Notes under the pieces: model-generated
Told to the model about the DNA's origin: nothing
Seen by the model: only the letters and a program-made list of their open reading frames with translations
Databases searched by the model: none
Program-made: the position numbers and the translations under genes
In this document: in pieces, positions 1 through 9,126 of the stretch
Position numbering within the stretch: position 1 is the stretch's first letter
Layout: each line of letters opens with the position of its first letter
Sequence record: MT884009.2
Strand: one strand, 5' to 3'
DNA from: Escherichia phage vb_EcoM_bov11CS3
Length of the DNA: 64,000 nucleotides

Positions 1-542
1 GGCGGACGAAATGGGAATACTTCTCATTCTTATAATAATTCTCAAATATCGAGGCAGTGAGGCAAATTAATAGGCCAGGCCGTTCACACAGTGGCACAAC
101 ATTTGCAGCCTATCCTGTGTGGATGAATGAGAATACCTATCATTGTGAGAACTGTTATCATTACGGGCAATTTAACATAATACCCATTATGCGCACCACT
201 GGCGATACATACAGGGGTTGATAACATGAGTTACAGTTTACGCATATAACAATCATATTTCTTACTATTTGTGTGGGATATAGTTAGCAGCCAATAGATT
301 AGATATTGACCTGTGGACTTCCAACCGTCTAGACGTCTAAGCGCCCACACAACAAGGGTTATACATACATCGCTGAATGTAAACAGGGCCGCAAAAATGC
401 TACCATACAAGATTGTAAATTTTTCATGCGGCACTTGACAAAGAGGAGAAAAACTTGTCTGACACACTGGGCATACTCAACACACTGGATACAATAACAA
501 TTGTTACTATTGCATGCCTCACTGTTCACGCATAGATGATAA

Positions 543-821
543 GCCATGCCATTCGTTTGCATGATAACGATTAGCAAGTTAATAATCTTTCGCTGGCTAT
601 GCCAGGTGACTAGGTCACCCCTTCGGGTGTTTCTATGACATAATATAAAAGCAGGGCAACTATTAGAAGATCTATAGTTGCCTTGCTTGTTATGTCATGA
701 TTAACTAAATACAAGGCAACTATGATCTGATTAATAGTTTGCAGACAAACTATCACGGGGGTGATGGTTACTGCTTTTATATTATGTCGCGACTCCGTCG
801 CGCCATGCCATTCGTTTGCAT
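543..821. repeat. Composite palindromic element: 20-bp direct repeats (543-562, 802-821) flanking 18-bp inverted repeats (639-656, 771-788) and two 9-10-9 inverted-repeat sites (655-682, 715-742)
   Basis: Direct repeat gccatgccattcgtttgcat twice; inverted repeat gacataatataaaagcag/ctgcttttatattatgtc; half-site GGCAACTAT in inverted pairs with 10-bp spacers; extra palindrome ggtgactaggtcacc at 606-620. Confidence 0.7.
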
Positions 822-1437
822 AGTTGCCTTATTGTTACAGGTAAAATAATTACATTATTAATTATTTCTTATCTTTCTCTTAGTCATCTAATGATTCCAG
901 TCAGTATAGTAATGCACAGTAAACATTAGACGACTAAAGATTTCTCTGTTTATGATAACTCATCGTGATAATTTCGGACTGTTTACGAAAAATGTTGACA
1001 CCTGAGCTGATTTATGTTATGCAGTTTACACGAATAATTATTTTATGCAGGTATTGACTATTCCGTTATTCTGTGGTTGGAATAAATACTTTGCAGGCTA
1101 TAGAATGGCGTGCGTACGTGAATTCTGAGATCTGGCGGCTATAGTTATACTCGATTTTTCGCGTAGAACACGCTTTCGATGCTGTGTAAGTGTATGACTT
1201 ATAAAGATTTTTAGTTGTTGACAAGATATTGGAGATGTGCATCAGGTTAAAATTTGTGCAATAGCGGCATTACGTGCACTTTTGGGAGAGAAAACGGGTA
1301 AAAATGGACTTGCTACCACACAATGAAAAATTATGCAATAGTTATTTTCCATGTATATTTGTACAGTATGTGGGATTGATGGCTAGTCAATTATTCCACT
1401 TGCCAGGTAGGGCCGTTTATGGTAGGAGAAGAGCAGA

Positions 1438-1462
1438 CAAAAAGAAAGGGGCCTAAGCCCCT
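1438..1462 (-). terminator. Rho-independent terminator (minus-strand sense)
   Basis: Hairpin ggggc-ctaa-gcccc followed on the minus strand by a U-tract; immediately 3-prime of ORF 1482-1901. Confidence 0.6.
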
Positions 1463-1481
1463 TGATAATTCAGTTAAAAAA

Positions 1482-1901
1482 TTATAATGATTCGTATATT
1501 TCAAAAATCCGATTTGCCAGGTCGTTACGGTAGCGGAATTTTTCCTCACGTTTGATCATAAGATCTTTATAGCCGTACTCTTTAAGCACTTCATTAACTT
1601 TATGGCGGCATACTTTCATATTATCCTGCGCGTCACCAATAAATCTGTTGCTATGGTGCATGGCTTTAATTTCTTCTTCCAGGACCAGGGCAACTATGCG
1701 GACCGGATCAAGCTGATAGGCGGTAACATCCATGCGGCATTGTAAACGGCTTTTTACGTCTGCCACCGGATATACTGCAACCTCTTCCCCGTCAACATTG
1801 ACAATAATTAGTTTACCATCGATTTCGAATCCTTTCGCCGCCGGACCGTGACAAAAAGCGTTATCAAAGCTATATGCCGGATTATTAGATTTAATGTTCA
1901 T
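1482..1901 (-). CDS. hypothetical early protein (139 aa)
   Basis: ATG start, SD aagagg upstream, sigma70-like promoter at 1951-1978, terminator downstream. Confidence 0.6.
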   Translation of the reverse strand: MNIKSNNPAYSFDNAFCHGPAAKGFEIDGKLIIVNVDGEEVAVYPVADVKSRLQCRMDVTAYQLDPVRIVALVLEEEIKAMHHSNRFIGDAQDNMKVCRHKVNEVLKEYGYKDLMIKREEKFRYRNDLANRIFEIYESL

Positions 1902-3987: not shown

Positions 3988-4167
3988 TTAACGATAATCA
4001 TCGTACGCTTTATTAACCTGGCGAATATAACATTCAAAAGCCAGATCAATAGATTTATATTCACGGATATACTCACCATAGGAAACCGCATACATTTCTA
4101 TAGCTTCCTCATATGCGAGGAGAATAGAATCCAAGCCTACGATCTCAGTCTTTGCAATAATAGCCAT
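3988..4167 (-). CDS. small protein (59 aa), not in ORF track
   Basis: ATG with SD aagagg; promoter-like TTGACA-16-TAGTAT at 4215-4242. Confidence 0.35.
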   Translation of the reverse strand: MAIIAKTEIVGLDSILLAYEEAIEMYAVSYGEYIREYKSIDLAFECYIRQVNKAYDDYR

Positions 4168-4214
4168 GATTTTTATCCTCTTTGTGGTTGGTGGGGCTTG
4201 CCCCTTTGATTTAT

Positions 4215-4242
4215 ATACTACAGTCTTATATGGTCATGTCAA
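4215..4242 (-). promoter_or_regulatory. sigma70-like promoter (TTGACA-16-TAGTAT)
   Basis: Hexamers read from reverse complement. Confidence 0.45.
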
Positions 4243-4472
4243 CTATTTTCAAAAAATTTTTCTGCTGTAATATTTTTCCCGGTAGGGTTCGCTACTTTCA
4301 AAATTCTATCATGCACCGGACGCCCAAAAGAATAAGCGCCGTACACAGTAAACCAATAATCGCCGTCAGGCTGTACTATTACCGCCGCATATGGTACGCC
4401 TTTTTCGTTTTTGCTGACAAAATAGATCACATTGCCATTAATAGCCTCAGCGCGTTTAATTTGTTCCATCAT
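4239..4472 (-). CDS. hypothetical protein (77 aa)
   Basis: ATG start; track ORF. Confidence 0.5.
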   Translation of the reverse strand: MMEQIKRAEAINGNVIYFVSKNEKGVPYAAVIVQPDGDYWFTVYGAYSFGRPVHDRILKVANPTGKNITAEKFFENS

Positions 4473-4526: not shown

Positions 4527-4811
4527 TTATTTATTGATAGCGTGCAGCGGGAAAGGTACGCCAGGTTGATAGATAACTTTTACAACCTCATCAGGGCAAA
4601 AGAAATTGCAGAATTCCCCCTGATAAGCCTCATCCTCTTTCAATTCTTCATCAACATACTCAAAAAAGTAGTCGATGCTTGGATAATCCTGGCCGGGATT
4701 ATAGTCTACCATCGTTAATAACAATTCTTGATCATTCCGTAGGATATGCATACCCGCTTTTAAGTATTTTGCTTCCATTTCCACTACATCGCCAACGGTG
4801 ACAATAGCCAT
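4527..4811 (-). CDS. hypothetical acidic protein (94 aa)
   Basis: ATG start; track ORF. Confidence 0.55.
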   Translation of the reverse strand: MAIVTVGDVVEMEAKYLKAGMHILRNDQELLLTMVDYNPGQDYPSIDYFFEYVDEELKEDEAYQGEFCNFFCPDEVVKVIYQPGVPFPLHAINK

Positions 4812-5037
4812 GATTTTAACTCCTATCTATCCGGTTAATGATTGGGGGGCCGCCCCCACTGACACGTCCTATTATCCATATTGTAGGACTTGATGCAAGT
4901 ACTTCTTTAAAAATTTTTTAAGCGCCTTGGGGCCGCTGTAACGCTAAAATAATAAAGGCCATGCAACCGCATAGCCTTTATGTGATTATATCGCTGCAGG
5001 CCCTGCTAGGGGCCTTATTTTGCATCATTTGCCGGAA

Positions 5038-5337: not shown

Positions 5338-5381
5338 GATCATTACTCCTTTTTGCACTGATTATTTTAACAGGGTTTAAA

Positions 5382-5425
5382 TTTACTTTATTGATGGCCC
5401 TGGAGTCAAGGCCATCTAAAAATAA
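5382..5425 (-). repeat. 44-bp repeat copy A: promoter-like element with palindrome GATGGCC-N10-GGCCATC
   Basis: Near-identical to copies at 9127-9170 and 9748-9791; minus strand reads TTGACT-N18-TAAATT. Confidence 0.7.
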
Positions 5426-5428
5426 ATT

Positions 5429-5629
5429 TTACAGGCCTACAATCTCTTTAATTCGTTTTACTGCTGCCTCAGCGCCTTGAGGGTAAAAATTATGGTAACC
5501 AATCACGCGAGTGATACTAATCGCCGTTTGATGATCTTCATAATACCCCTTGAATATTTCTTGACCATCAACCAGCACAGCAATTTTTTCTTCTTTTTTG
5601 AAGTTAATAACGCGGATATTGTTGCTCAT
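5429..5629 (-). CDS. hypothetical protein (66 aa)
   Basis: ATG start with SD; hairpin ggggag-tgt-ctcccc in leader. Confidence 0.5.
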   Translation of the reverse strand: MSNNIRVINFKKEEKIAVLVDGQEIFKGYYEDHQTAISITRVIGYHNFYPQGAEAAVKRIKEIVGL

Positions 5630-8837: not shown

Positions 8838-9083
8838 TTATTTGACGATACCGACAAAACAGATCCCGCCTTCCCCTATATAGGCAATATCGGTAATTTT
8901 ATAATTTGTCAAGATCCGCGTGTTCAGCTCATTAATAAAATCTGTCATCGCGTTGGTGTAGTTGTCTTCCGTGTCTAAGGCATAATCCCAGGTGTAAACC
9001 TTTTTACGTCCGAAGCCTTTTACCATGATACGGGCGCTTTTGGTGTTGGTAGGGGCATAATATTTGGTGATTAGTGCTGCCAT
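8838..9083 (-). CDS. hypothetical protein (81 aa)
   Basis: ATG start; preceded by 44-bp promoter repeat copy B. Confidence 0.5.
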   Translation of the reverse strand: MAALITKYYAPTNTKSARIMVKGFGRKKVYTWDYALDTEDNYTNAMTDFINELNTRILTNYKITDIAYIGEGGICFVGIVK

Positions 9084-9126
9084 GGTTTTAACTCCTATGC
9101 ATTAGTTCAGTGTTAACAGTATAAAG

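Follow-up and report, generated by a model that had tools for sequence, protein, structure and literature searches.

A ~150-bp compound palindrome with direct repeats lies just past the terminal repeat of Escherichia phage vb_EcoM_bov11CS3 (record MT884009.2), and we tentatively interpret it, at somewhat less than an even chance, as a sub-terminal DNA module that acts in cis at the concatemer junction and would serve junction recognition or terminal-repeat processing. The window analyzed was the first 64,000 nt of this rV5-like myophage (Vequintavirus), and genome-wide counts were made on record MT884010.2 (135,884 bp). The element occupies window positions 543-830. Since it is constrained and single-copy, carries class-specific motifs and co-varying arms, and has no coding or promoter signal, we take it for a putative cis-acting site for a sequence-specific phage protein. 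Furthermore, since its position just past the terminal repeat is conserved in three lineages with differing terminal repeats, a role at the concatemer junction is the most economical explanation. The binding of a protein, the identity of the binder and a role in packaging are predictions made from sequence. The sub-terminal palindromic module is previously undescribed and falls into a known general category, that of cis elements next to the ends of phage genomes.

The nested repeat architecture, first described in a sequence-only reading of this DNA, was confirmed as real and far beyond chance. The two copies of the 20-nt direct repeat GCCATGCCATTCGTTTGCAT, at 543-562 and 802-821, are identical at 20 of 20 positions, and the two arms of the 18-nt inverted repeat GACATAATATAAAAGCAG, at 637-654 and 771-788 with 116 nt between them, are complementary at 18 of 18. 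That reading had also described two inner sites of identical 9-10-9 geometry; site 1 is indeed perfect, but the right half of site 2, ATAGTTTGC, has 2 mismatches and is variable among relatives. A search that tolerated up to 3 mismatches found just these two copies of GCCATGCCATTCGTTTGCAT, in the window as well as across all 135,884 bp of the genome (0.01 expected), and the 18-mer arms and the 20-mer are unique to the element across the genome. The half-site GGCAACTAT has 9 exact copies in 136 kb, where base composition predicts ~1.1, and 4 of the 9 lie inside 174 bp (scan P ~2e-6). Moreover, the 9-N10-9 geometry, allowing up to 3 mismatches, occurs genome-wide only at sites 1 and 2. The features of the element and its surroundings are as follows.

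1-459, unstranded: left copy of the direct terminal repeat (DTR); context, outside the module, placed by the alignment of phage Gotham and by record ends.
460-542, plus strand: hypervariable spacer just past the DTR, with degenerate short direct repeats of variable copy number (TGACAYAMT, ACTGTTYAC); identity 0.58-0.71, compared with 0.9-1.0 around it.
543-562, plus strand: left direct repeat (DR-L), GCCATGCCATTCGTTTGCAT; in all Vequintavirus loci examined, with C7A in some, in the left copy only.
563-636, plus strand: variable linker with indels; GC-rich hairpin GGTGAC-TAG-GTCACC at 606-620 and weak terminator-like hairpin at 616-629.
637-654, plus strand: left outer arm (IR-L), GACATAATATAAAAGCAG; 18/18 pairing with 771-788; arms co-vary in six lineages.
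655-682, unstranded: site 1, GGCAACTAT-N10-ATAGTTGCC; perfect 9-10-9 palindrome whose spacer contains GATC; half-sites invariant in 12/12 aligned Vequintaviruses.
686-711, unstranded: AT-rich center of the inner palindrome (77% AT), symmetry center ~698.5; a 33-nt insertion lies here in some records.
715-742, unstranded: site 2, GGCAACTAT-N10-ATAGTTTGC; left half exact, right half degenerate and variable; GATC in the spacer.
745-770, plus strand: asymmetric hairpin AACTATCAC-GGGG-GTGATGGTT, with the G-run directly before the right arm; stem-loop at 748-769.
771-788, minus strand: right outer arm (IR-R), CTGCTTTTATATTATGTC, complementary to IR-L.
789-801, plus strand: GC-rich, hairpin-forming motif GCGACTCCGTCGC, which continues into GCCA of the right direct repeat; homologous to GTCGCTCCCTACGGTCGCGCCA in other classes.
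802-821, plus strand: right direct repeat (DR-R), identical to DR-L.
820-830, minus strand: fourth exact half-site (exact at 820-828), in ATAGTTGCCTT; overlaps the end of DR-R, lies outside the palindrome and is kept in phage FV3.
836-900, unstranded: conserved AT-rich tract on the gene-proximal side of the module; 77% AT, compared with the genome value of 56%.

The arms of site 1 stretch to 15 nt with one mismatch (649-663 / 674-688), and the imperfect half of site 2 at 734-741 also pairs with 746-753 as an 8-4-8 hairpin. The stem at 616-629 is disrupted in several relatives. An open reading frame (ORF) check found no credible ORF in the element region, in agreement with the earlier description of it as gene-free, and the nearest gene is 650 nt off. 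The element had also been placed at the downstream end of the minus-strand early unit; it is downstream of that unit, but the unit stops at its own strong terminator at 1446-1463, ~600 nt away. In rV5, the counterpart of the element sits in a 2.6-kb gene-free gap between ORF163 (plus strand) and ORF164 (minus strand). The rV5 genome paper labels this gap only "non-coding" and reports that neither the bidirectional terminators expected between genes 163 and 164 nor an origin was found (PMC3606486).

Window position 1 was assigned to the left physical end of the DNA packaged in the virion, with a 459-bp DTR at 1-459, because the terminal repeat of Gotham aligns to 1-459 and other records and the literature agree. 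The annotated 459-bp repeat of Gotham (MT682716) is present as two identical copies and aligns exactly to window 1-459. The DTR was also found at both record ends in ECP2309 and YN3 and at the end of the ECP2303 record, and the Pr121LW record begins at the 459 boundary. Gotham, itself a Vequintavirus, has been described with 459-bp terminal repeats and a single fixed packaging start (Dias et al. 2020, PMC7471380), and terminal redundancies of 458 bp are known from two further Vequintaviruses (Korf et al. 2019, PMC6563267). A short DTR with fixed ends is thus present, as in T7-type junctions (Gotham alignment, record ends, PMC7471380, PMC6563267, PMC9862379). The mapping of genome ends, which the sequence-only reading had proposed as a check, proved informative, since the element adjoins the terminal repeat: DR-L begins 84 nt, and the outer arm IR-L 177 nt, interior to the DTR inner boundary. 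As for record ends in this group, a genome announcement (PMC8407724) gives four rV5-like bov phages of 135,960-135,961 bp, at least two of them 'circular permutated'. Version 2 of the bov22_2 record has 135,884 bp and opens exactly on the first DTR base with one repeat copy; its ends were apparently re-set after publication.

At the cut site, the end of the DTR reads ...CTTGTC and is followed by TGACAC. The array past the DTR is longer in rV5, with 4-5 copies of TGACAYAAT and ~9 of ACTGTTYAC, compared with about one of each in this phage. Short direct-repeat arrays flanking the DTR, a trait of T7 junctions, were seen on both sides, namely the array at 460-540 on one side and four copies of CCTGAAGAG on the other. 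An 8-genome alignment of the 2.6-kb concatemer junction showed most variation in two stretches directly outside the two DTR boundaries, with identities of 0.32-0.75 at -99 to -20 (a stretch ~100 nt before position 1; locus L014, ~4786-4866) and 0.58-0.71 at 461-540. The motif GACAYAMT, found at the outer arm ends, also stands directly after the DTR cut site, with 3 copies there in rV5, and 3 of its 16 genomic copies lie inside 360 bp at this locus; this likeness between the arm ends and the cut-site flank may give weak support to the junction reading. On the right-end side of the DTR, an invariant non-coding block at window -740 to -540 (L014, ~4145-4345) holds the G-run GGGGGGAGGGGGG. The four junction copies of CCTGAAGAG stand in the same orientation at -660, -245, -210 and -126, and only 6 copies occur in 69 kb. 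The block and these copies may form a second cis element, one that serves the opposite genome end.

Both direct repeats, both arms and the four exact half-sites were kept in 11 of 11 relatives fetched. Among 117 Vequintavirus records, the core at 631-840 was at least 99% identical in 75, compared with 21 for the non-coding stretch 900-1110 and 1 for the DTR. The core is the most conserved non-coding DNA of the 2.6-kb gene-free junction, and identity in the 8-genome alignment was 0.97-1.00 over 661-820. The inter-site spacing is not fixed, since an additional 33 nt separates sites 1 and 2 in ~10 records, rV5 among them (rV5 locus L013, 2316-2348). This rV5-type insert of ~33 nt carries a small GGCTATGCC hairpin, and a similar insert follows DR-L in phage SYGMH1 (compare window 595-606); the insert may be a tiny mobile or slippage-prone hairpin. 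Among the records that match the region, 18 (MG065644-MG065682) are named 'Campylobacter phage', with C. jejuni as host, and are 85-96% identical to this Vequintavirus across it; their host and organism labels look doubtful.

A comparison of relatives for presence or absence of the segment between the direct repeats, also proposed in the sequence-only reading, found it in 115 of the 117 records. The exception is FV3; of the 2 records lacking the module interior, one is FV3 (NC_019517) and the other is assumed to be its GenBank duplicate. In FV3, a single hybrid repeat copy, GCCATGACATTCGTTTGCAT, with the variant base of the left copy, is joined straight to ATAGTTGCCTT, which amounts to a precise repeat-to-repeat loss. 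The DTR, one direct-repeat copy and the half-site at 820-828 are retained. Because the same-species phage SYGMH1 and all other genera have the module, FV3 represents either a derived, repeat-mediated deletion or an artefact of cloning or amplification of a long palindrome, and it does not speak for an insertion. The module is precisely excisable between its 20-nt repeats.

The same nested layout was found at the same locus, 430-713 nt past the stop codon of the ORF164 homologue, in diverged lineages, each with its own sequence. Six classes were distinguished in two subfamilies (Vequintavirinae and Stephanstirmvirinae), and their outer arms are perfectly complementary over 15-21 nt. The loci that came from scans were obtained by protein-based scans of metagenomes (8) and viral contigs (3) and by a DNA-pattern scan of viral contigs (2). 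The arms of the six classes are listed below.

Class 1, Vequintavirus: arm GACATAATATAAAAGCAG, 18 nt, 116 nt between arms.
Class 2, two metagenomic contigs: arm GACATAATAACGCTGAG, 17 nt, 82 nt between arms.
Class 3, Phapecoctavirus (Stephanstirmvirinae): arm GCTAATAATAAGCCA, 15 nt, 97-98 nt between arms.
Class 4, metagenomic lineage: arm GACACAATAACGCAGTAG, 18 nt, 138 or 188 nt between arms.
Class 5, A7_1 / W70: arm GACACTATAAAACGAG, 16 nt, 73 nt between arms.
Class 6, Klebsiella phage KPP-1 (Mydovirus): arm AGCGACACAATAACACGGGAG, 21 nt, 164 nt between arms.

No further perfect inverted repeat of at least 15 nt was found in the 1.5-3.5 kb examined per locus. The arms were formally compared for co-variation in the five classes that share a GACA anchor. 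All 75 of 75 cells pair, and 8 of 15 positions change on both sides with none changing on one side only, compared with 24-55% pairing in slid controls; this count is partly circular, as the arms were chosen as perfect repeats, but no such circularity affects the finding that they recur independently at the homologous position. There were no G-T (wobble) intermediates. In addition, the single strands of the region fold at -51.6 and -51.5 kcal/mol (z = -9.1 and -9.3). The equal folding of both strands, together with arm co-variation that lacks wobble intermediates, therefore points to a duplex-DNA palindrome rather than an RNA.

The right side of the module keeps a constant order, in which a G-run (classes 1-5, with a small hairpin ahead of it) precedes the right arm, and a GC-rich motif follows it. 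Class 6 has a TGATAA-N4-TTATCA palindrome at the position of the G-run and hairpin instead. The GC-rich motif reads GTCGC...GTCGCGCCA in classes 1, 2, 4 and 5 and CGCTACGCTCGCGCCA in class 6, and class 3 has a hairpin there. Beyond it lies the right direct repeat, if the class has one, and in most classes an AT-rich stretch comes next. The direct repeats of class 2 are 21 nt long, identical to each other and homologous to those of class 1. Class-specific 10-12-mers are present in 3-5 copies and in both orientations, namely CTCAGCGTTAT in class 2, ACAATTTTGCA in class 4, and GCCACGATAAC together with TGATAA-N4-TTATCA in class 6.

Three of the six classes have mapped ends, and in these the arms lie 177-309 nt from the DTR. 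Schickermooser (Phapecoctavirus) has a DTR of 329 bp with largely unrelated sequence, and its module arms begin 209 nt past the inner boundary. The DTR of KPP-1 is 514 bp long, as mapped by coverage and PhageTerm, with T7-type packaging (PMC9862379), and its module arms begin 309 nt past the inner boundary. The inner boundary itself is homologous in the window phage, Schickermooser and KPP-1, reading GAAAAACTTGTC, GAGAACTTGCT and GAGAATTGTGT, respectively, up to the cut, and in each of them the module stands on the early-gene side of the DTR, with the early genes beyond it.

Two observations were made on the metagenomic classes. A second class-4 module lies at 8883-9106 of IMGVR_UViG_2706795553_000001 (locus L036, 121 kb), with the same 18-nt arms and the same inner 16-nt inverted repeat as in ERZ1090862. 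Its loop has ~50 nt of extra, hairpin-rich DNA (188 nt, compared with 138 nt in ERZ1090862), so the arms and inner sites are constant and the loop content changes. In the class-2 relative L004, 3-4 copies of the DnaA-box-like TGTGGATAA are clustered (5339-5386 and 5526-5540) in the zone corresponding to the terminal repeat. L004 was also considered as a close relative with a swapped module that could reveal the cognate protein, and was rejected, since only ORF164 is highly similar and the flanks are at most 78% identical.

If the module acts at the concatemer junction, a lineage-specific phage DNA-binding protein would bind the inverted outer arms as well as the 9-12-mer repeats, here RGGCAACTAT, and the most economical candidate binder would be the small terminase subunit or a terminase accessory factor. 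Binding, possibly aided by hairpin or cruciform extrusion, would assemble a nucleoprotein complex that marks the junction and sets nick positions at the DTR boundaries. The nicks would serve excision of the unit genome and duplication of the single junction repeat copy. Such a role would be functionally akin to that of lambda cosB, of pac-site arrays and of the junction elements of T7 concatemers. Phages with short DTRs must cut both repeat boundaries and duplicate the single copy at the junction (PMC4281155). The element also resembles terminase recognition sites in its closeness to the cleavage site or genome end (84/177 nt here, 209 nt in Schickermooser and 309 nt in KPP-1) and, at the sequence level, in its motif repetition, with four exact GGCAACTAT copies here and a class-specific motif in each other lineage.

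Several observations weigh against this junction reading. The FV3 record lacks the whole module yet keeps the DTR; if its sequence is true for a viable phage, the module is not an indispensable packaging signal and may be dispensable. The non-model phage Bas63 of the PhageMaP study (PMC11482910) is a Felixounavirus, so its essentiality data are not relevant here. The likeness of the arm ends to the cut-site flank is clear in Vequintavirus, but not in Phapecoctavirus or Mydovirus. On the other side of the DTR, no palindrome was found, only direct repeats (CCTGAAGAG, four copies). No small terminase subunit (TerS) was identified in the phage; the two small ORFs upstream of TerL were considered and rejected, as they encode Rz-like spanins. 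Moreover, the adjacency of the module to the DTR is correlative. A more specific form of the junction reading, which we regard as unlikely, holds that the module is a hairpin or cruciform DNA device of Vequintavirinae and Stephanstirmvirinae that directs terminal-repeat duplication. A site-specific nick near the DTR boundary would let the palindrome fold back and prime or template strand-displacement synthesis across the repeat; the arms and half-sites would be recognized by a protein specific to the lineage. The outer 18-bp stem and the inner hairpins recall the terminal hairpins of parvoviruses.

Among the alternatives outside end processing, a replication origin is the main rival, though itself doubtful. 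A phage initiator would bind the inverted, repeated half-sites and melt the adjacent AT-rich DNA, and the element has lineage-specific repeated sites, inverted, around the AT-rich center at 686-711 (77% AT), with the conserved tract at 836-900 (77% AT) alongside, although repeated sites next to AT-rich DNA are not specific to origins. Its high single-strand folding potential is typical of palindromic origins; the iterons of lambda ori, oriL and oriS of herpes simplex virus (HSV) and the core origin of simian virus 40 (SV40) serve as comparisons. Dispensability in FV3 would also be easier to explain for an origin; phages often have redundant origins or recombination-dependent replication. However, the replication genes are tens of kb distant, no adjacent initiator gene was identified, and no priming promoter was found in the element. 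A consensus scan found no exact DnaA box in the junction of the window, and scans of the module for integration host factor (IHF) and DnaA consensus sites gave no match. An origin also leaves unexplained why the module keeps a fixed position past the DTR in three lineages that differ in DTR length and sequence. The cumulative GC skew has an extreme at ~2 kb, and the rV5 paper notes a skew change across the zone (PMC3606486), but this extreme is the point of converging transcription and is hence uninformative, in agreement with the same paper.

The readings based on transcription or mobility were weighed on the same evidence. A transcription insulator, in which hairpin terminators would block read-through from the converging units into the terminal repeat, finds some support, since phage Murica carries a minus-strand terminator annotation at the homologue of site 1, TTTTATATT follows the 15-bp stem on the minus strand, two weak hairpins at 616-629 and 748-769 resemble plus-strand terminators, and the rV5 authors expected bidirectional terminators between genes 163 and 164 and did not find them (PMC3606486). 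Nevertheless, we consider it quite unlikely, because a strong, canonical terminator at 1446-1463 already serves the early unit, the stem at 616-629 is broken in relatives, and terminators need neither perfect arms of 15-21 nt set 73-188 nt apart, nor flanking direct repeats, nor four identical half-sites of which one lies outside the palindrome. The strict Watson-Crick co-variation, lacking G-T intermediates, likewise speaks against an RNA stem. It is very unlikely that the element is an operator or other local regulatory site, or that it is a gene for a structured non-coding RNA (a small RNA with inverted-repeat stems). The 9-10-9 palindrome would suit a dimeric protein, and the sites had been called operator-like, but no sigma-70-like site was found in 543-830, there is no gene to regulate (the nearest, 650 nt off, has its own promoter and terminator), the site occurs nowhere else in the genome, and the distance between the two sites is not fixed. 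The strong folding of the region would fit an RNA, but both strands fold equally, the arms co-vary without wobble intermediates, and a search of window 1-1600 against Rfam 15 at permissive E-values gave no family at threshold (best His_leader, 24.8 bits, compared with a gathering threshold of 49). The idea that the flanking direct repeats are the footprint of a small inserted element was not supported, and a small non-autonomous mobile element, similar to a miniature inverted-repeat transposable element (MITE), with the 20-nt direct repeats as target-site duplication, is extremely improbable. The order of direct repeat, inverted repeat, inverted repeat and direct repeat does match such an element, and the FV3 record, with its single repeat copy, looks exactly like an empty site. 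However, the direct repeats are separated from the inverted repeats by 74 and 13 nt, 20 nt is atypically long for a target-site duplication, and the element is single-copy, with none found elsewhere in the genome. It is also present in 115 of 117 records and in SYGMH1, the same-species sister of FV3, and this locus holds homologous modules, in which both repeat copies co-vary, in other genera and in another subfamily.

It is plausible that the half-sites are bound by a sequence-specific, probably dimeric, protein. Because the half-site occurs four times in both orientations and each diverged lineage has its own repeated motif, the predicted binder is a lineage-specific phage protein. The product of ORF164 was considered for this role and rejected. 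It has no Pfam family and belongs to a PHROG of unknown function, and its single-sequence AlphaFold model (predicted local distance difference test, pLDDT, 57) was too poor for a fold search. Furthermore, at ~85-92% amino acid identity it is too conserved for class-specific motifs, and the KPP-1 module is apparently not accompanied by ORF164. A copy of RGGCAACTAT at 1688 in ORF164 was likewise dismissed as a fifth site of the system, since all module classes encode (G/A)TAGTTGCCCTG there, which makes it a coding coincidence. The ORF164 homologue (1482-1901, minus strand) is monocistronic, with a near-consensus sigma-70 promoter at ~1951-1979 and the strong terminator at 1446-1463. Its nucleotide identity is 84-89% across genera whose flanks are at most 78% identical or undetectable. 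FV3, the phage without the module, has no copy of it, and KPP-1 apparently has none either.

Short-motif arrays in non-coding DNA near the terminase cut are known from lambda cosB (R-sites of gpNu1, with IHF), SPP1 pacL/pacR and P1 pac. The present module is similar in having multiple copies of a short, lineage-specific motif in both orientations within a few hundred bp of the cut site. It differs in that the ends here are short DTRs, not cohesive ends or headful cuts; in that its sites are enclosed by a compound palindrome with perfect 18-nt arms and 20-nt direct repeats; in that no small terminase subunit was identified in this phage; and in that the record of one isolate (FV3) lacks it. A further likeness to P1 pac is the embedded GATC in both 10-bp spacers (669-672 and 724-727). 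The junction is otherwise GATC-poor, with 5 in 2.8 kb compared with about one per 210 bp genome-wide, and the phage encodes a DNA N6-adenine methyltransferase (MT884010.2, 122622-123155). By analogy, methylation-sensitive recognition as at P1 pac is conceivable.

In T7, the short-repeat arrays SRL and SRR flank the terminal repeat, and processing relies on the phage's own RNA polymerase and on junction pause sites; we know of no comparable 150-bp compound palindrome in T7. The junction studied here shares with that of T7 a short fixed-end DTR with T7-type packaging (PhageTerm on the relative KPP-1, PMC9862379), variable short direct-repeat arrays that abut the DTR, and a hairpin-capable element beside the junction that could support nick-and-copy repeat duplication. 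For T7, two papers (PMC11482910, PMC4281155) that cite Chung, Nardone and Hinkle 1990 describe a hairpin-ended concatemer-processing intermediate. The rV5-like phages, in contrast, use the host polymerase (PMC3606486). Any homology to the T7 system is functional at best, not sequence-based.

With HSV oriL/oriS, the SV40 core and lambda ori, the module shares inverted initiator-type sites around an AT-rich center with an AT-rich tract alongside. HSV oriL is unstable on cloning, and the precise deletion in FV3, as a possible loss on cloning, is a further likeness. The module differs from these palindromic origins in that no initiator gene, priming promoter or DnaA boxes were found and in that only here is a sub-terminal position fixed. 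The injection-stop region of T5, a gene-free zone near the genome end with many direct and inverted repeats, is part of a 10-kb repeat and comes after the pre-early genes. Both phages have a large gene-free, repeat-rich zone close to the genome end, but here only ~0.5 kb without genes lies ahead of the element, so a two-step transfer would express nothing.

The rV5-like and phAPEC8-like myophages are common isolates that are used in phage therapy and biocontrol, and no packaging signal or small terminase subunit has been defined in them. A discrete, constrained element beside a mapped terminal repeat is therefore a concrete target for experiments on end formation, and precise excision of the FV3 type by the 20-nt repeats matters for the cloning and assembly of these genomes. 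Should the module be an origin, it would be the first for the rV5-like/phAPEC8-like group; as a hairpin device, it would give a large group of therapeutic myophages their first defined cis element that directs the duplication of the terminal repeat. If it is a true packaging or terminal-repeat signal, it would aid genome engineering, the design of transducing particles and the end annotation of more than 100 deposited genomes.

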